This document shows, one piece after another, positions 46,089-54,546 of a stretch of DNA of 64,000 nt (its first letter is position 1; each line of letters opens with the position of its first letter). The notes under the pieces are model-generated. The model made no database searches, was not told the origin of the DNA, and was given only the letters and a program-made list of their open reading frames with translations. The stretch covers positions 448,001 through 512,000 of the forward strand of contig OY968764.1 of NCBI GenBank assembly GCA_963695335.1, given 5' to 3'. Source of the stretch: an uncultured bacterium (GTDB lineage: Bacteria; Babelota; Babeliae; Babelales; Vermiphilaceae). The position numbers and the translations under genes are program-made.

Positions 46089-46239
46089 GTCTACGCCAAG
46101 GCTTCGTCTGGCTTCGCCAAAAAGGTGGAGTTAAGTTTGAGTCTGTCGAAAGATTTGGCACAGTCAATTAAAAAAGGCTGTGGTTTTTTATTTTTACCCA
46201 CTTATATCAGAATTCTAAGTCACCTTTCTTGAAATTTAT

Positions 46240-46317
46240 GTCCCTATCGTCTAGCCTGGTCTAGGACATCGCCCTTTCACGGCGAAAACAGGGGTTCAAA
46301 TCCCCTTGGGGATGCCA
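46240..46317 (+). tRNA. tRNA-Glu (TTC), integration target
   Basis: Cloverleaf, TCGCC-CTTTCAC-GGCGA anticodon arm, ends GGGGATGCCA. Confidence 0.96.
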
Positions 46318-47766
46318 TTGTATACAATCGAACGAATCTGCGATTAAATCGAATGGCGAAACAAGCTCCCAATGAACATTTTCACCACTTATCTTCAAGT
46401 TCGATAATACGGTTTTGATTAAAAGCCGTTTTTGCTGAACTTCTGAACTTATAAAAATATCATATGCTCTGTCTGCAAGCTTAAGCAGCATCTGTGCGGT
46501 AATATAGTAATTTGTCTCTGCTTCTTGAAGTTGCTCTAAACGAATGGCAATATCAGTTGCTTTGTCTTTGAGTGATGTGAAGAATTTGTCATAGTAGGCG
46601 TCAGTAATACTCCCTTTCAGTTTATCCATATAAAGATTATCCATCATCGTGGCAAGTGTGCTTTGTTCTTTTAATAACTTTTCATTTTCTTGTTTGTGGA
46701 ATTCAACTTTGTTTTTATGCACTTCAGTGAGAACATCCATCGTGTCTTGGAGAATGTTTTTTGGCATTTGTAGGCGTGCAAAGAGTTTGCTGATGCTTGC
46801 AGTAATTGTTTCTTCACGGAACCATGTTGCGCCATGTTTGCCTTTTGCTTGCGTGCAATGGTAATAAACATGGCCTTTTTGCCGTTCATGGGTTATTGCA
46901 AGACCGCAATCGCCGCAACGGATTAAACCGCGATATAAAATGTCTTCTTTGCCTTTGTAGCGTTGTAGGTTTTTTCCATTTCTTTTTCTAACTTCTTGTA
47001 CTTCCTGAAACAATGCTTGTGTAATGATGGGTGGATAATTATGAGGATATGATTTTCCATTCACGGTCATGATGCCGTAATAGAAGGTGTAATTGAACAT
47101 TTTATCAACATTGCTTGTGGACCATGCAAGGCCATAATCAGTGTTTATTTTTTTGCATAAGGTGGAAAAAGAAAATGCACCTGTTGCATACAATTCAAAT
47201 GCTTTGCGCACAACTTGTGAGCCAAATTCATCAACAATAATTGTTGTTTTGTCGCTACCTAATGAAATGTTTTTATACCCATAAGGCGCTTTTGCAGGCC
47301 ATTCACCTTTGCGTAACTTTTGTTCAATGGCACGTTTAACATTATCACTGATTGCATCGGAATAATATTTTGCTAACCCAAGGCTGATGCCAAATTGGAA
47401 CTTTTCAACAGCAGAAATATTACTGTTGATGATTTGCCCGTCGGAAATAAAATGTAATTCAAGTTGATCTCTGAGGGCTTTTTCATAAAGGGTGGAGATG
47501 CGTTTATCAAAGGTGTTGCGTGATAGTCTATCTACTTTATCGCAGCAGATAACAACTTTTTCTTTTTGATTGAGTGCATAATCAATAATTGCATCAAATT
47601 CAGAGCGGCTATTGGTATAAGCACTTTCATCAAAGCTGCAAGTGCGGAGTATACTAAAGCCTTTGTTGCGACAATATTGTTCAAGGCGACTTATCTGGGC
47701 AGGGAGTGAATTACCAGCTTCTTTTTGTTCTTCTGTGCTGACACGAGCTATCAGAATAGCTTTCAT
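46261..47766 (-). CDS. Large serine recombinase; last 18 codons are antisense to tRNA-Glu
   Basis: ARVSTEEQ catalytic Ser, DRLSR, APYGY, Zn ribbon CGDC...YYHC, coiled coil. Confidence 0.93.
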   Translation of the reverse strand: MKAILIARVSTEEQKEAGNSLPAQISRLEQYCRNKGFSILRTCSFDESAYTNSRSEFDAIIDYALNQKEKVVICCDKVDRLSRNTFDKRISTLYEKALRDQLELHFISDGQIINSNISAVEKFQFGISLGLAKYYSDAISDNVKRAIEQKLRKGEWPAKAPYGYKNISLGSDKTTIIVDEFGSQVVRKAFELYATGAFSFSTLCKKINTDYGLAWSTSNVDKMFNYTFYYGIMTVNGKSYPHNYPPIITQALFQEVQEVRKRNGKNLQRYKGKEDILYRGLIRCGDCGLAITHERQKGHVYYHCTQAKGKHGATWFREETITASISKLFARLQMPKNILQDTMDVLTEVHKNKVEFHKQENEKLLKEQSTLATMMDNLYMDKLKGSITDAYYDKFFTSLKDKATDIAIRLEQLQEAETNYYITAQMLLKLADRAYDIFISSEVQQKRLLIKTVLSNLKISGENVHWELVSPFDLIADSFDCIQWHPQGDLNPCFRRERAMS

Positions 47767-48008
47767 GGGATAAATCCTTTTGTTTATGGATATTTCGTAG
47801 ATTTGTCGATGATAGTGTAACAGAAGAAATGAGGATTGTTATTAGTATTATAATTGGAGCTTCAAGATGATAATAAATATAAACAACAAGATATGATGAA
47901 TATAACTTAATATATTTAATTATATTTTTATGTATTAAATTTACTTAATTACATTATTATGGCATTCTTTGTGTGCATTACAAAATACATAACAAAAAAG
48001 GTGCCCTC

Positions 48009-49196
48009 ATGAAAAATTCTCATCTAATTCTCACCCTATGTGCATTAAGCACATTGATATCTCACTCAATGCAACTTACTCTCAAAGCAAATCCTCACAA
48101 ACTTAAACAGATAAGATACATTACATCACAAAAGGAATCACAAACAACACCCACCAAGATAAAGAAACAAAAAAATAATCAATATAATAATTGTTGTATT
48201 ATTGAAGGAAAAGAACGAGTAAAAGACCTTGTGGTACAGACTTCAAATGCATTGCAATCACGCCTTAAGGAATTACAAACAACATTCACCAAGACAAAGA
48301 AACGAAACAGCAGTCAATGCAATAATTGTTGTATTGTTGAAAAAAAAGAGCAAATTAAAGATCTTGTGGTATATACTTCAAATTCATTGCAATCATGTTT
48401 TCCTACATATAACTCCAAATACGATTCCAAAGTTTTTGTTGAAGATTATGGTTGTCAAAGTTTACATATTGTATTCGGTATGACCCATGCTTGTTTTGCC
48501 GTTGCGACGCTTAACCCTATTGGCTTGATTCCAATTATTACGAATGCTGTAGCAATAAAATGTATTAAGTTAGATAGGGATCTTATTAATTCAGTAGAAC
48601 GACCTCAGTTAGCAACAGATTTGATATCTTATTTGAATGCGATTAATCGTGAGGGTTATCTTTCTATTCATAGGCTTTTTATCAGAAGAGATTGTATAGA
48701 AAATGAGATAAGAAATCATAAAAAAGTTAATACACAAACGCTTTCATCCCTTGATTTAAAAAACGCATTAAATAATTATAATGTAAAACTTATTGAGTTA
48801 GAAAAGTCAGAAGACATAATAAATAGTGAAATTCTTGAACCAATCTTACCTATTTTGAATAAGTATGAAAATGTAGATATTGAAAAATGTTTAACATATA
48901 CAGATACACTAAAGAGAACTGCGGCATTTAAAAGACGTTTACTTGTTGGTGGAAGTTTGGCTATTTATCTCTCCACTTTGGGTATCGTTGTGGATGGCAC
49001 TGACAATGTATTAATTGCATTCATAGCTACGTTATCTATGCTTGATTTAATAGGAACACCTTTAATAATGGATAATGATTTATCAGATAAGATGAATATT
49101 ATTTCGAATTGCCTAAAAATCTATAAAAATCATTTGGCAACAATACAAAACAATGCTTTTGTAAAAACATTAGAAAATAAAAAAAATATTGAGTAA
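48009..49196 (+). CDS. Secreted cargo protein with a 45-aa internal duplication and hydrophobic segments
   Basis: Signal peptide ending SHS-MQL; 135-bp tandem repeat starting at 48132 and 48267. Confidence 0.72.
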   Translation: MKNSHLILTLCALSTLISHSMQLTLKANPHKLKQIRYITSQKESQTTPTKIKKQKNNQYNNCCIIEGKERVKDLVVQTSNALQSRLKELQTTFTKTKKRNSSQCNNCCIVEKKEQIKDLVVYTSNSLQSCFPTYNSKYDSKVFVEDYGCQSLHIVFGMTHACFAVATLNPIGLIPIITNAVAIKCIKLDRDLINSVERPQLATDLISYLNAINREGYLSIHRLFIRRDCIENEIRNHKKVNTQTLSSLDLKNALNNYNVKLIELEKSEDIINSEILEPILPILNKYENVDIEKCLTYTDTLKRTAAFKRRLLVGGSLAIYLSTLGIVVDGTDNVLIAFIATLSMLDLIGTPLIMDNDLSDKMNIISNCLKIYKNHLATIQNNAFVKTLENKKNIE

Positions 49197-49276
49197 TGCC
49201 GAAAAATAATAGTGGTTAAACAATTAAGGGTTATTGCAGATTATTGCATAGCCCTTAATCATTGTTCAGTAACTTA

Positions 49277-50434
49277 TCAAATTTCTTTTGTGATAGGTTC
49301 AAATTTTTCTAAGCAATCCCTAATCACCTTAAATGAATTTGATGATATGGGTTGTTGAGTAATCGTAGTGTTTTTCATATCAGCAATTAAGCGGTACCAG
49401 CTACGTTTATTGTGTGCACCAAGCATAGTGCGTAGTTCACGAATGCTTATTTGATCCAATGCCAATTTCATTCCATAAAGCTGCAAAATACGGCGAGGGC
49501 TGAGGGTAGGATTATTAAAAATAAGAGCAACAAGAAGTTGTTTTGTGTTATTTGTTTTGAAATCCAACAACGGTGGGCGCATGCGTTCAATTTCATCAAG
49601 ATAATGCAGGAGTACTTTGCGTGCAATGTTTGTTTTGAAGAGTCCTTTAAAGGTCAGTTGAGCTTTAATATTCAGCATCTTTAAAATCTGTTGGATCTTG
49701 CGCCGATTATTCAAGCGTGCTTCCATGCGTAAAACTTCAAACATTTTTTTATTATGCAATTCATCGTAGAGGTGCAATTGAATTGCGTTATCTTTTTCTA
49801 ATGATCGTTTATCACTTTTTTTTGCATATTCAAGATCACGAATTTTATCATAAAAAACTAATTCATAAGAGTTACTATGCCATTTGTAGCTGTGGCCTTT
49901 ATTGCGGTAATCAGTTTGATTGATATCAAGAGAGAGTTTGATATTTGCTTGTTCAATTTTGCTGATGTAATGATACGGAATAGAACCATCAGTGAGTGGG
50001 ATATTTTTTGAAAAATGAATGCCGGAAACGGGTGCATTGATCAAATTTTCAATATCAGTTGCAACTCCCATGGTGTGTAATGTTGTGCATAATTTTTGTA
50101 CAAGATCAGGAAATTGTTTTTGTGTTAGTTCTTCAAAGTTGTTACCAAATAATAGTTTTGGCAATGATAGTTCAATTTTAAGCAACGTTTTTGGTGTTGA
50201 GAGTGGTGAGGGCCGTCTTAAAAGGGATAGACGAGGTTTATAATAACCTGTAGCTAATTCTTTTTTTGTCGGGTTTTGTTTGGAAGAAATGCCGCGCAAA
50301 GCATAGGTTTTATCGTTGATCTCGGTCTTCGAAGCTTTAGCGAAGTAGACCCATCGCGCAGAAGGCGTAAATAAATCAGGATTAGTAATTTCAAACAAGT
50401 CTTGCGTAAGGAGTAAAACGATCGTATCTATCAT
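49277..50434 (-). CDS. Putative phage/plasmid replication initiator (gene II/X, CRI-like)
   Basis: MIDTI start, IELSLPKLLFGNN, FYDK, LRMEARL motifs; family assigned from recalled motifs. Confidence 0.7.
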   Translation of the reverse strand: MIDTIVLLLTQDLFEITNPDLFTPSARWVYFAKASKTEINDKTYALRGISSKQNPTKKELATGYYKPRLSLLRRPSPLSTPKTLLKIELSLPKLLFGNNFEELTQKQFPDLVQKLCTTLHTMGVATDIENLINAPVSGIHFSKNIPLTDGSIPYHYISKIEQANIKLSLDINQTDYRNKGHSYKWHSNSYELVFYDKIRDLEYAKKSDKRSLEKDNAIQLHLYDELHNKKMFEVLRMEARLNNRRKIQQILKMLNIKAQLTFKGLFKTNIARKVLLHYLDEIERMRPPLLDFKTNNTKQLLVALIFNNPTLSPRRILQLYGMKLALDQISIRELRTMLGAHNKRSWYRLIADMKNTTITQQPISSNSFKVIRDCLEKFEPITKEI

Positions 50435-50804
50435 TGCAATATCCCATGATGAAATCAATTATATTGCACGTAAGGATACGGGTAAATGCTTTGAAAAACA
50501 AGTCCCGCAGAGCGGTTCTTGATGAATTACTCATTGCGGGATATTTGATGTGGCAAGGCTTGCCCTTCATAGCTTTAGCGGAGTAGGGTTGGTGTTTTAT
50601 GGGCCTGTGGAAGCCGCAGCACCCAACTTCGCAAAAGCTTTGAGACTCAGCTTTTTTTGCTTTTGCCTTTTTTGGTGAACGTCTTTTATTTGCTGCACTT
50701 GTTTGCAGATTCACTTCTATAAGTAATGTGAATAAGTTTGCAACACGTGTTTTTTCTTCAACTGTTAAGACTCTAACAGATTTTATTGGTCGTAATCGAG
50801 CCAT
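50391..50804 (-). CDS. Small basic hypothetical protein upstream of rep
   Basis: Helical N-terminus EEKTRVANLFTLLIEVN; C-terminal half crosses hairpins and may be non-coding. Confidence 0.45.
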   Translation of the reverse strand: MARLRPIKSVRVLTVEEKTRVANLFTLLIEVNLQTSAANKRRSPKKAKAKKAESQSFCEVGCCGFHRPIKHQPYSAKAMKGKPCHIKYPAMSNSSRTALRDLFFKAFTRILTCNIIDFIMGYCNDRYDRFTPYARLV

Positions 50805-51071
50805 ATAATACTCTCTATAATAAATAATGAAAATTATTTTGTTCGTAGTATGGCGTAAAATTACTGTGACAAGTTTTTTAGATTAATTGGGAACTGAGAC
50901 AGGAATTGTACGCCATAGTCATGATCTGCGTGAGATCACGTTCAATATCTATAATTGCGTACATGGTATTCCTTCCGTGGCCTTCGAAGCTTTATGCGTA
51001 GTAGGCAAAAAAATGATGCTATCATTACAACGATTGCTGCAATGATAGCATATAGTGCGAATAATGCAAAT

Positions 51072-51401
51072 TTATTTTCTGCTTGGTACAGGAATCTCAA
51101 GCGGGATGTATTGGCCGTGAAGTTCAACCATGATTTTTTTGGATCCAAGCCCTCTTAAGATTTTAAAGAAACTTTGCATACTAAAATCTGTTTTGCTTCC
51201 TGATCGCATTGCTTGCACAATAGTCGGAGATACTCCTGCCATTTTTGCAAGTTTTCTTACGGATATATTGTCTTTTGCCATAGCAGCAAGAATCAATTCA
51301 GACAAAAGAAGTTCTTTATATTCTTCATCAAATTTTTTACGTTCTTCTGGGCTTAATGATTCAATAAGTTCATCTACAGTTGATTTTACTTTTTTATTCA
51401 T
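51072..51401 (-). CDS. Xre-HTH antitoxin
   Basis: ISVRKLAKMAGVSPTIVQ HTH; overlaps upstream toxin gene. Confidence 0.85.
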   Translation of the reverse strand: MNKKVKSTVDELIESLSPEERKKFDEEYKELLLSELILAAMAKDNISVRKLAKMAGVSPTIVQAMRSGSKTDFSMQSFFKILRGLGSKKIMVELHGQYIPLEIPVPSRK

Positions 51402-51777
51402 AATATGTTCCTTCTTTAACTCTTTTAATATAGTTCTCTTTTGCTCTTAAAGCTTTTTCTTTTTCTTTTATAGGCATTTTTGCTGATTTTTTTTCATAGG
51501 CATTGGTTATAATAACTTTTGATCCATCAAAGAAAAAACAGAAAAATCTGTCTGGTGAAGATTTAAATACATATATTTGGTCTCCTTCATAACGAAATTT
51601 TTCTAGATTAAAAACTTTTCCTGTGTTTCCAAGTAATAAAAAAAGGCGTGCGAGTTTCTTTTGACGATCATCAGGTAAATTTTTGAAATGAGCTAAAGGT
51701 TCACTTTTTCCCTTATCATTAAAATACCATTCAATGATATATTCTTTACCTTCACATGCTACAATCTTTTTCTTCAT
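51394..51777 (-). CDS. RelE/ParE (Gp49-like) toxin
   Basis: IYVFKSSPDRFFCFF...IITNAYEKKS..MP.KEKEKA. Confidence 0.85.
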   Translation of the reverse strand: MKKKIVACEGKEYIIEWYFNDKGKSEPLAHFKNLPDDRQKKLARLFLLLGNTGKVFNLEKFRYEGDQIYVFKSSPDRFFCFFFDGSKVIITNAYEKKSAKMPIKEKEKALRAKENYIKRVKEGTYYE

Positions 51778-51824
51778 TAAGCACTCGATTTTTTTATGGG
51801 TATTACTTTTTATTCATTATTAAA

Positions 51825-51844
51825 TGTATCATAAAAATGATACA
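51825..51844. promoter_or_regulatory. Probable TA operator palindrome
   Basis: TGTATCAT-AAAA-ATGATACA just upstream of the toxin start. Confidence 0.65.
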
Positions 51845-51877
51845 AGCACAAGGATGATTATAATTTTGCACCTTCGT

Positions 51878-51976
51878 TCATTGTATATTTAACTCCGCAA
51901 ATAGCGTCTGTATCATGCTTAATGAGTATTTTATAGGGGCTGTTTGGTTCAGGAGAGCATGGTGAAGGGGATGCCA
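51878..51976 (-). other. attR with the native recombinase C-terminal tail
   Basis: In the recombinase frame from the shared WHP: WHPLHHALLNQTAPIKYSLSMIQTLFAELNIQ*. Confidence 0.8.
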
Positions 51977-52030
51977 GTCTTCGCTCTAGCGAGCTTCGTA
52001 TGGCAAGCCAATCTTCGCAAATGATTGATA

Positions 52031-52277
52031 TTAAAAATTAAAAGAGCTGTTTTAACAACGGCTCTTTTTTTTTTGTTTTAAATCGATCTATTCGTTACTT
52101 TTTATGTTTTGACCTATAAAATTCTATTGTGAAATATTGTTAAATTATAAAAATATTTATAAAACCATTGTTTTCTACCCCCCCCCATCTGATATTGTTA
52201 TAATTGAAATAAATATTGTTAGTTTTTCAAAAAAGGAGAGTTTTCATGAAGAAGTTATGTTTATTGTCAGGAATGAT
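52031..52277 (+). repeat. About 250-bp direct repeat, copy 1 (terminator, promoter, RBS, gene start)
   Basis: Aligns with 55220-55462; contains a C9 tract. Confidence 0.85.
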
Positions 52278-52824
52278 GGTTTTTGTTGTGGCAGGTGTTA
52301 ATGCGGCACAAAACTTGACAGATGAACAACGTCAAAAATTGGAACAAGTGCAATGGGGAAAAATTAGACAACAACACGAATTGGCACGTCCTGCAACCTA
52401 TAAGATGTTAGATCCATTAGTACAGCAAAGCAACTGGCCTGCTGTTTTTCATATTCTTGATCAAATGCAAGGGGTTATAAGTGTTAATGAGTATCGATAC
52501 CATGGGGATACACTGCTTACTTTCGCGGTAGGTACAAAAAATATTTCAGCAGCAAAAACATTACTTGAAAAATATAAAGCTAATCCTAATGTAACATCTT
52601 TATCATTTTCAGGTCTTGGATTGTCACCATTGATGCAGGCTTGTATAACGGGAGACCTTGCCATGGTTAAATTATTACTTAGCTATAAAGCTAATCCTTT
52701 TTTAATGAGATCAGGAGAGGGAATAACACCAGGAAGTACCGCGTTGTTCTATGCTAAATATTATAACTATCCTGAAATTGTAAAATTGTTGGAAAAATAT
52801 ACACGTCCTGCAAAAGATGCATAA
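52246..52824 (+). CDS. Secreted ankyrin-repeat protein
   Basis: Signal peptide; GDTLLTFAV, GLSPLMQAC, GSTALFYA. Confidence 0.85.
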   Translation: MKKLCLLSGMMVFVVAGVNAAQNLTDEQRQKLEQVQWGKIRQQHELARPATYKMLDPLVQQSNWPAVFHILDQMQGVISVNEYRYHGDTLLTFAVGTKNISAAKTLLEKYKANPNVTSLSFSGLGLSPLMQACITGDLAMVKLLLSYKANPFLMRSGEGITPGSTALFYAKYYNYPEIVKLLEKYTRPAKDA

Positions 52825-52839
52825 ATTATAAAAATAAAT

Positions 52840-53026
52840 GAGATCCCTTCTCTTGTTGTAGTTTTAAATTCTTCTAAACAATCTTTAATAATTTTAAACG
52901 AATTAGATGGCATGGGTTGTTGGGGAATGCTAGCATCTTTTATGTCAGCAATTAAGCGATACCAGCTGCGTTTATTGTAAGCACCAAACATGGTACGTAA
53001 TTCTCAGATGCTTATTGTTCCAATGC
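52840..53026 (-). pseudogene. 3' remnant of a second rep gene
   Basis: GAYNKRSWYRLIADIK...SNSFKIIKDCLEEF matches the C-terminus of 49277-50434. Confidence 0.85.
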
Positions 53027-53289
53027 TATTTATGTTTTGCTTCAAGTTTTAATTGTAATCCCATGGCATTAATAATTGTACGAAAATCATGCCAACGTAG
53101 ATTCTTTTTAGAAAGCATTTTATAGATGTTTTGGTTGTCTACATTTTGTGCGTTAAGAACATGCTTTAAGGCAAGACGAATAGTTTCTTGATTTTCATCC
53201 ATAAGAGTAGCATTAAGGCATGCAAGTGCTTCTTCAGGATCTTGGAGTGCTTTGAGTAAACTTTCTTCGTGATCGATTGTTCTTTTCAT
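53026..53289 (-). CDS. Orphan addiction-module antidote (HTH), apparently internally shortened
   Basis: LQDPEEALACLN...LALKHV...NIYKMLS...IINAMGLQL; ATGA overlap with upstream gene. Confidence 0.75.
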   Translation of the reverse strand: MKRTIDHEESLLKALQDPEEALACLNATLMDENQETIRLALKHVLNAQNVDNQNIYKMLSKKNLRWHDFRTIINAMGLQLKLEAKHK

Positions 53290-53711
53290 TTTTCTTGTGT
53301 ATTTAAAGCATTATATTTTTGAAGAGCTAACTTTTTAATTTCTGCAATTTCATCTTCAGTAAAACGTTCTTTGAGATATCTTTGGAAAGTTTTTCTGTTC
53401 AGAGTTTTTTTTGCTATGACCATTTCAATAGCAGTGAGTTCAACTTCTTCTAAAATACCTCGATCTTTTAAAAAATCATCAAAGTTAGAGCCAATATACT
53501 TATTTTTTGTCATTATATTTTGTATCTTTTGTGATTGGATAATAGTTGGAGATACTTTTGCTATTTTTGCGAGTTTTTTTACTGATACATTATCTTTGGC
53601 TATAGCAGCAAGAATTAACTCGGATAATGCGAATATTCTATATTCTTCATTAAATTTTTTGCATTCTTCTGGACTCAATGATTCGATGAATGTATCAAAT
53701 GTTGATTTCAT
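53286..53711 (-). CDS. Chimeric protein of three antitoxin N-terminal segments
   Basis: Residues 2-59 match antitoxin 51072-51401; middle GSNFDDFL..GILEEV; last part resembles the N-terminus of 53708-54013. Confidence 0.75.
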   Translation of the reverse strand: MKSTFDTFIESLSPEECKKFNEEYRIFALSELILAAIAKDNVSVKKLAKIAKVSPTIIQSQKIQNIMTKNKYIGSNFDDFLKDRGILEEVELTAIEMVIAKKTLNRKTFQRYLKERFTEDEIAEIKKLALQKYNALNTQEK

Positions 53712-54013
53712 TTTTTGAAGATATCTTTTGGCTCTTTATCCATAAGAGCTAGAAAGTGAGCAAAGCTTGCAAGTGTTAAGTTTGCTTGGCCACGTTGTAT
53801 TTTGGAGGCTTGAGATGGGCTTGTGGATAAGCGACGAACAACTTCGTTAAAACCAACCTTATTTTTTTTCATATATTCTGCCATAGTATCAGAAAGTATT
53901 TTTTGAATTGATCTGAGAATATCAACTTCAAGTTGTGCTTTGCGCTCAATTTCAGCAATTTGTTCTTTAGTGAGTCTTTTCTCTACGATGTCATAAAAGC
54001 TTTTTGTTTTCAT
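53708..54013 (-). CDS. Xre-HTH antitoxin
   Basis: VGFNEVVRRLSTSPSQASKIQRGQANLTL HTH; directly after the toxin gene. Confidence 0.82.
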   Translation of the reverse strand: MKTKSFYDIVEKRLTKEQIAEIERKAQLEVDILRSIQKILSDTMAEYMKKNKVGFNEVVRRLSTSPSQASKIQRGQANLTLASFAHFLALMDKEPKDIFKK

Positions 54014-54014
54014 A

Positions 54015-54338
54015 TTATTTTTCCTCTGATAAGCGTTTATATGCAGTTTTAATATCTTTTTCCTGTGACTTTTTATCACCAGCAGCAAGTAGAATAATTA
54101 ATTGATTTTCCTTAAAGCAATAATATAGTCGGTATCCAAATTGTCGTTCACGTAATTCAAAGAGTCCTTTACCTAATGCACGACTATGAGGAAGTTTTAA
54201 TTCATTGCCTAATTTTTCTAACATGCGTAATTCTTGGGAGATAGATTCAAATTGTTCAATGGTTAACTTATAGATCCATTTTTCAAGGGGGCTTTTTCCG
54301 CTTTCATTAACCCAATATTCTATATTCCATTTTTTCAA
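54015..54338 (-). CDS. RelE/ParE (HigB/Gp49-like) toxin
   Basis: PHSRALGKGLFELRE...YRLYY...LLAAGDKKSQEKDIKTA. Confidence 0.9.
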   Translation of the reverse strand: MKKWNIEYWVNESGKSPLEKWIYKLTIEQFESISQELRMLEKLGNELKLPHSRALGKGLFELRERQFGYRLYYCFKENQLIILLAAGDKKSQEKDIKTAYKRLSEEK

Positions 54339-54423
54339 AGCTTCACTCCTACAAATAATAGTACTACTATAAAAGATAGTATAATAAGCGATGTTATGTC
54401 AATGCTAAACTTAATAAGTTACT

Positions 54424-54546
54424 TTATATAATGGAGTTTGTTTGCTCATTCGTTAACCATATCTTAAATTCCGTAAAGAGCGTCTGCATCATGCTTAATG
54501 GGTACTTGAAGGGGGCTGTTTGGTTCAGGAGAACATGGTGAAAAGG
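54424..54546 (-). other. Second orphan recombinase tail (att arm) of a decayed sibling element
   Basis: PFHHVLLNQTAPFKYPLSMMQTLFTE..., 20/26 identical to the 51878-51976 tail. Confidence 0.75.

Follow-up and report, generated by a model that had tools for sequence, protein, structure and literature searches.

A tRNA-Glu element of the Vermiphilaceae whose serine integrase gene is divided by its own attachment site, and a possible role for the detachable C-terminal tail

What becomes of a site-specific recombinase when the reaction that it catalyses cuts through its own gene, and could such a cut decide in which direction the next reaction runs? The question is raised by a 5,659-bp element seated at the CCA tip of a tRNA-Glu gene in an uncultured bacterium of the Vermiphilaceae (Babelales), where it lies in a stretch of 64,000 nucleotides (assembly GCA_963695335.1, contig OY968764.1, positions 448,001 to 512,000 of the forward strand), hereafter the window, in whose coordinates positions are given. 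The element's own attachment site (attP) falls within the gene for its large serine recombinase (int). The division of an integrase gene by its own attP is a known principle; what is well supported here is its occurrence in a large tRNA-targeting family of serine integrases that have a conserved, detachable tail. That this tail favours integration while its loss permits excision, giving a built-in switch, is on the basis of sequence comparison quite possible and falls just short of being probable.

The element and the two forms of its integrase

The target, tRNA-Glu(TTC), is encoded on the forward strand at 46240..46317 (called by ARAGORN) and is left intact by integration, its 3' end being identical in genomes of the same genus. 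The core GGGGATGCCA occurs exactly twice in the window, once at the tRNA gene's 3' end (attL core, 46308..46317, forward strand) and once at the far end of the element (attR core, 51967..51976, forward strand), where it was located by a repeat search and by same-genus comparison. This 10-mer is by itself unremarkable, 1.6 matches with at most one mismatch being expected in the window by chance, and the boundary is fixed because same-genus relatives show it: in one of these (G002, locus L062) the site is empty, and the DNA that comes immediately after tRNA-Glu shares 89% identity, over 100 columns, with the flank of the window after 51976. One low-share public run, from some relative, also joins 46318 to 51991 with 14 other letters between. 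The limits that the initial annotation had given to the island are thus borne out, and the predicted circle would also measure 5,659 bp. The integrase that another genome (G006, L032) has at the same tRNA is 88% identical and belongs to an element of 7,359 bp whose cargo is different and whose core measures 8 bp.

The recombinase gene is on the reverse strand (46261..47766) and in its integrated form encodes 501 amino acids, with Resolvase, Recombinase and zinc-ribbon domains and a coiled coil. PF00239 (Resolvase) is matched at E 3e-21 and includes the catalytic Ser10 motif, RVS10 being invariant in 80 aligned rows; PF07508 and PF13408 are also matched, residues C284, C287 and C304 are invariant, an AlphaFold2 (AF2) model has helices at 336-415 and the nearest PDB folds, according to Foldseek, are solved large serine integrases. 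In domain order, Ser10 motif, zinc ribbon and coiled coil the protein resembles the canonical A118/LI, SPbeta SprA, Bxb1 and phiC31 integrases. An identity as CcrA or CcrB of SCCmec, or as XisF, was rejected because scores against the NCBIfam equivalog models lie far under their cut-offs (61.3 against 700, 64.7 against 900 and 95 against 375, respectively). The integrase body is under strong purifying selection, with 51, 25 and 186 mismatches at the first, second and third codon positions.

The codons of W484-H-P are the antisense of the att core, and the 501-residue protein ends WHP-QGDLNPCFRRERAMS*, its last 15 residues and stop (46261..46308, reverse strand) being read from the antisense of tRNA-Glu. 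At attR the same frame reads WHP-LHHALLNQTAPIKYSLSMIQTLFAELNIQ*; this attP-side tail (WHP plus 29 amino acids and a stop, 51878..51976, reverse strand) is stored there without a start codon and would join int on the circle to give a protein of 515 amino acids. Both the placing of the core within the recombinase frame and the two protein lengths, as first annotated, could be re-derived from the sequence. An open tail frame is by itself unremarkable, as a frame of at least 31 codons starts from 381 of the window's 1,756 TGG codons. A separate tail open reading frame (ORF) in the integrated state was considered and rejected, the Trp being preceded by a stop at a distance of three codons, with no start in between. 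The alignment with the A118/LI integrase stops at profile position 464, which is its end, about 20 residues before the Trp; the tail-less enzyme therefore keeps every canonical domain, the tail being an addition that comes behind the zinc-ribbon/coiled-coil domain.

Conservation of the two tails

It had initially been proposed that each state of the element has a working tail of its own. The tRNA-side tail does not bear this out: across relatives its length ranges from 2 to 68 residues, with 2-3 residues in 26 of 47, and even elements at tRNA-Glu differ, ending WRP* or WxPQGDxNPC.... It is not conserved in the family, and in the window's integrated form residues 486-501 have a predicted local distance difference test score (pLDDT) below 50 in AF2, that is, they are predicted to be disordered. 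Such variability, the usual length of 2-3 residues and the predicted disorder mark the tRNA-side tail as a by-product, so that integration amounts to truncation. The switch is therefore one of tail present versus tail absent, and not of two working tails.

The attP-side tail is, by sequence comparison and structural modelling, a real module. Only tails standing in place on integrases without a tRNA served as the seed of its profile, and every peptide opened by an upstream TGG was then scored in 63 integrated loci. The cut-off was reached in 14 of these, and in 13 of the 14 the top peptide lay on a core of at least 6 bp, as against 166 of 7,569 TGG codons (2.2%); in a second, partly overlapping set of loci the tail peptide was on the core in 12 of 12. 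The other 49 loci were without a tail match, many of them being on short contigs or having other tail types. The tail family, with the consensus WxPLxDxFxNxxxEFxxSLxxIQTxF, is conserved in internal helices and not in its last residues. It was found in 32 of 61 related genomes (a tally of 46 of 61 was set aside, since many of its matches were tRNA antisense peptide only) and forms 260 clusters at 50% identity in a representative library. Among the 150 clusters listed, the tail stands directly behind an integrase body in 27, including one (P0206) with the window's subtype, which also recurs in same-genus loci. AF2 places helices at 484-491 and 501-510 in a natural tailed relative (P0025), with pLDDT 82-87. 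No relative was found when the tail profile was compared with the PDB (best E 0.12), and a region search with the P0025 tail returned only itself and two tail-less bodies.

Proportions of synonymous (pS) and non-synonymous (pN) differences were computed on tail codons 12-31, which lie beyond the att arm. Between the window tail and that of L032 pS was 0.78 and pN 0.08, and comparison with L062 and L069 gave 0.68 and 0.11, and 0.48 and 0.15, respectively. Over 24 tails, nucleotide entropy had its minimum at second codon positions and its maximum at third ones. These figures indicate purifying selection on the attP-side tail at the level of the protein, and as there is no start codon before the tail at attR, the selection must come from states in which the tail is joined to the integrase. 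Conservation of this tail in homologs, named as a check when the locus was first annotated, is thus found both in its spread through related genomes and in the selection beyond the att arm.

It could be argued that nothing is regulated, the tail being no more than the enzyme's natural C-terminus (acting as a solubility cap or oligomer contact), its overlap with attP a matter of genome economy or a lock between int and attP, and the two forms alike. The first ~10 tail codons do overlap the attP DNA arm, and different tail classes are found on similar bodies. Set against this are the protein-level selection on codons beyond the arm and the constancy of the split, which is found at one and the same Trp in integrases as little as ~30% identical and over 8 tRNA types, and we regard the explanation as quite improbable. 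Another suggestion is that the tail is a C-terminal degradation tag which limits integrase on the circle. The repressor of mycobacteriophage BPs carries a degradation tag, and some of the tails studied here are Ala-rich at the end (PAFA, LAFA); a final Ala is found in 20 of 150 tails (for comparison, in 54 of the genome's 915 long ORFs) and in 15 of 69 tails of one subgroup. The other subgroup has it in only 5 of 76, however, and conservation lies in the internal helices rather than the last residues. The window's own tail ends ELNIQ. The degradation reading is very improbable indeed, and for this element it was rejected.

Direction of recombination

If the presence of the tail is what changes, the two states of the element constrain what each form would have to do. 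A circle entering a new cell could make only the tailed enzyme, so that the tailed form would have to perform attP x attB, and a lone integrated copy could make only the tail-less enzyme, so that excision would have to come from the tail-less form, acting alone or with a helper. With attP at the Trp codon inside int, the integrated gene is left without its conserved 29-residue tail, which the circle would restore. In solved integrases, direction is controlled by the coiled-coil and zinc domains (PMC11722253); the tail, next to the zinc-ribbon/coiled-coil domain, would likely hold the coiled coil in an integrative arrangement. The circle itself would probably replicate by a rolling-circle mechanism and be held by a toxin-antitoxin (TA) pair.

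The initial annotation predicted that the attP-side tail would be found on the circular form, and tail-bearing integrases do occur on two natural circular contigs of relatives. These two distinct contigs, each assembled twice (L119/L122, 6,426 bp, and L130/L131, 7,575 bp), both encode a replication initiator (Rep) and a tailed integrase, without a tRNA. Their cargo, inspected by eye in L122 and L130, resembles restriction-modification genes, and L130 also has a SpoVG-like gene just before rep. Tailed integrases are found in chromosomal tandem arrays as well (L128, L111), which fits a tailed form that does not excise. In the L128 array the distal integrase, which shares 74% identity with the proximal one, runs on into the tail of its neighbour, and tails thus appear to be exchanged between integrase bodies within arrays. 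Tandem arrays with several stored tails were noted in L128, L111, L043, L051 and L177.

The same observations bear on the idea that the tail is a recombination directionality factor (RDF) fused in cis, such that the circle's enzyme would block re-insertion and promote excision and the tail-less form would be an ordinary integrase. The prediction of the tail as two helices is in keeping with this. Yet a circle in a new host encodes the tailed form only, most members are nonetheless integrated (47 of 71 anchored loci have a tRNA at the Trp), and tailed integrases persist in chromosomal arrays, all of which makes a fused RDF improbable.

A further explanation is a down-switch in activity or stability of the kind known from phage Mx8: the tail would raise activity or stability, the integrated enzyme would be weak, keeping the element in place, and direction would be set by something else, for example a small ORF of the element, Rep or a helper element. 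The integrated form of the Mx8 integrase is less active, as cited in PMC4701971, and for dsiB of Dehalococcoides it has been proposed that its product is fully functional perhaps only on the circle (McMurdie, PMC3146451). Mean pLDDT is 87.6 for a tailed and 80.6 for a tail-less model, these being different proteins, and many relatives are decayed or without int. On the other side, the tail-less form retains the full canonical fold and the integrase body is under strong purifying selection, although the circular state alone could account for the latter. We consider a down-switch possible but somewhat unlikely.

The small ORF just referred to is basic, encodes 137 amino acids and lies upstream of rep (50391..50804, reverse strand); it is a candidate regulator or RDF. 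Its N-terminal ~45 amino acids are conserved, being found in 9 of 121 sequences searched and, in another search, in 36 proteins including itself. RDFs share no structural theme (Alsaleh 2025, PMC11795197), and given this conserved small ORF the original statement that the element has no recognisable RDF is weak evidence.

Returning to the proposed switch, with integration favoured by the tail and excision made possible by its loss, a number of points weigh against it. The 137-residue product could be an ordinary RDF. The circular contigs belong to relatives at 49% identity, and an assembler may also close a tandem dimer into a circle. The runs listed comprised none of RNA and five of DNA with low shares (0.06-0.09); in the four of these that were examined no circle junction of this strain was seen, coverage being too thin to be informative. 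The window tail scored 27 in the first pass, under the cut-off of 35 because it is of a divergent subtype, although it was the best of 124 candidates, and selection is weaker in some same-genus pairs (pS 0.28-0.32, pN 0.17-0.18 against L065). The high pLDDT of the tail carries no information on where it packs, the two models compared are of different proteins with different alignments, and the top Foldseek matches are the same with and without the tail. There is at least one further, unrelated-looking class of tail (xxTLRTFxW) on similar bodies, and tails combine with different integrase bodies, which asks little of the specificity expected of a precise allosteric switch. The xxTLRTFxW class was recorded in P0047, P0063, P0093, P0105, L037, L142, L186, L195 and L201.

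Gene content, relatives and precedents

Besides int the element has five further genes. The first encodes a cargo protein of 395 amino acids of no known family (48009..49196, forward strand), with an internal 135-bp duplication and a hydrophobic N-terminus that is the sole basis for its label as secreted; relatives occur at 3 other loci. Rep (384 amino acids, 49277..50431, reverse strand) is without a match in Pfam, PHROG or NCBIfam and is likely of the rolling-circle Phage_CRI/G2P type, its language-model (Atlas) features being nearest those of Phage_CRI clusters (0.97), of whose members 25-31% carry PF05144; homologs were found in 60 of the 121 sequences searched. Upstream of the 137-residue ORF there is an imperfect hairpin (50849..50917; z -4.4 for 50830-50930), which together with a second strong hairpin (49215-49275, z -3.0) brackets the rep unit, and the two may be origin or terminator structures. 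A helix-turn-helix antitoxin-like gene (51072..51401, reverse strand; PF01381 at cut-off) and, upstream of it, a Gp49/RelE-like toxin gene (51394..51777, reverse strand; PF05973, E 1.9e-8) make up the TA pair. Counts from scans for promoters and terminators did not depart from chance (22 vs 26.9 and 4 vs 3.8, respectively). None of the six ORFs matched virion or conjugation families in Pfam, PHROGs or NCBIfam, and only 2 weak loci on viral contigs matched the family; the element's genes do not account for its movement between cells. The content first annotated (int, a secreted cargo, Rep and TA genes, and no virion or conjugation genes) stands overall, with the additions that the 137-residue ORF had been left out, that "secreted" is thinly based and that for Rep there is a Phage_CRI-like lead.

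Integration displaces a host flank (B', 51977..52075, forward strand) which in empty relatives follows tRNA-Glu and consists of a small palindromic repeat and a terminator-like hairpin. The hairpin (52040-52068) is thereby parted from the tRNA gene, with the consequence that tRNA read-through could run antisense into int; a similar terminator-like hairpin stands behind the tRNA in L063 and L065. Short palindromic repeats with GCCA-like ends lie behind many tRNA or attR ends in these genomes (in the window at 51977-52010, 46089-46110 and 50327-50348), and elsewhere in the same genome (C1:204900-205350) such a short palindromic repeat stands beside a small ORF that is GIY-YIG-like by eye. Beyond attR (51977-54543) there is a likely remnant of an older element, comprising a Rep 3' fragment (52767-52991), TA-like genes (53026-54338) and, at about 54460-54543, a decayed copy of the tail without its Trp. 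Behind tRNA-Glu in G002 and G009 there are comparable remnants that lack int and have one or two tails.

The integrase has at least 2,362 relatives, and of the best 120 most end, by eye, at the same Trp, followed by a near stop or a tRNA-antisense peptide. Of 80 genome loci 71 could be anchored, and the 47 in which ARAGORN called a tRNA with CCA at the Trp divide into Glu 14, Asn 10, Asp 9, Arg 9 and Gln 5; the remaining 24 are without a tRNA call at that position. On a tree of 101 integrases and 8 tRNA types there were 19 changes of target, where shuffled labels gave 60 on average, a comparison that is descriptive since kin share labels. The family thus appears to be site-specific, with repeated switching of its tRNA target. 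Shared cores range from 6 to 10 bp, with a minimal core of 6 bp common to the family, and from this and a weak dyad signal the crossover dinucleotide is likely at tRNA positions 71-72 (AT, 46312-46313): the best attP dyad axis coincides with these positions, with a score of 8.96 against 8.25 for the next. The attP copy of a GTT/GAA motif is 4-6 bp further out than the one in the T-arm of the tRNA, in line with the shift of 4-5 bp reported for other integrases. Record titles of relatives include Babeliales/Dependentiae and Patescibacteria lineages. In phage and plasmid collections identity was at most 31%; each of the three records inspected has a tRNA gene alongside, and none of them showed a convincing type-1 tail. 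The layout seems to extend to a cultured genus, in a Legionella adelaidensis record (L233:12001-13546) with a 30%-identical integrase ending at tRNA-Asn beside SpoVG, AbiEi/AbiEii and restriction-modification genes. The bacterium's own genome has further elements of the family: a second intact one at tRNA-Gln (9,177 bp, typical tail; C1:885553-894803) and decayed ones at two tRNA-Arg loci (C1:204826-211575 and 1065884-1069792), one of which consists of Rep and two tails with almost no int.

In canonical large serine integrases, unlike the element described here, attP lies outside the gene and there is a separate RDF. SSV1-type archaeal tyrosine integrases have attP inside the gene and a tRNA target, int being split into large fragments, and BPs-type immunity likewise combines attP inside a gene, a tRNA target and a tyrosine integrase, the truncated gene being that of the repressor and not of the integrase. 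These two precedents were named in the initial annotation, which missed closer ones, namely the serine recombinases DsiB (PMC3146451) and those of the rumA elements (PMC4701971), and phage Mx8. In the Dehalococcoides ssrA islands dsiB always overlaps attL at the transfer-messenger RNA (tmRNA) gene (McMurdie 2011, PMC3146451), and it is suggested there that the enzyme works fully only when on the circle or when behind a neighbouring island. DsiB is likewise a large serine recombinase, encoded on the reverse strand, and the 3' end of its gene covers attL at that of a structural RNA gene; variable C-termini and tandem accretion are also shared. The DsiB islands differ in having a tmRNA target, a crossover in the T-loop and a 20-bp repeat, against the CCA tip of tRNA-Glu and a 10-bp core (6-10 bp in the family) here. 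Their module comprises six genes, with DsiA and homologs of ParB and Mom among them, and no replication gene, whereas our element has one recombinase and Rep and the module was not matched; in the text available a conserved attP tail is not demonstrated for DsiB. In the streptococcal integrative and conjugative elements at rumA, att is inside the serine integrase gene, integration alters the length and sequence of the C-terminus and a functional difference between the forms has been proposed (Ambroset 2016, PMC4701971); they have a protein-coding target, are conjugative and exchange 3' ends reciprocally with rumA, in contrast to the tRNA target and lack of conjugation genes here. Myxophage Mx8 has attP inside int, and integration swaps the C-terminus for a short peptide and alters activity, as described in PMC6070905 and PMC4701971; it is a phage with a tyrosine recombinase that loses 112 residues, against 29 in the serine enzyme considered here, and only the layout is common. 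No paper on a family of serine integrases that target tRNA-CCA ends and have a conserved attP tail was found in a literature search of incomplete coverage, and in the Durrant preprint the term "tRNA" is absent from the main text.

The existence of the family contradicts a working rule stated in an island-database paper of 2015, by which tRNA genes are not among the targets of serine integrases, and cores of 6-10 bp would easily escape notice. Databases hold mostly the truncated form, so that mining them for genome-editing tools would test the wrong isoform; having switched among at least 8 tRNA types, the family also offers integrases for conserved sites. With two defined isoforms and four defined sites, an idea that has stood open for DsiB since 2011 and for the rumA elements since 2016 becomes testable. 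If true, the switch would be a one-gene, self-toggling control for serine integrases. It is possible, and we put it forward tentatively, that a large and so far undescribed family in the Babeliales and Patescibacteria, inserting at the CCA tip of many tRNAs, has a detachable C-terminal directionality module, by which recombination itself would toggle the enzyme between integrase and excisionase with no separate RDF, and that, tails being stored at attR, newcomers to an array would hand their tail to the resident integrase and so reset its state.

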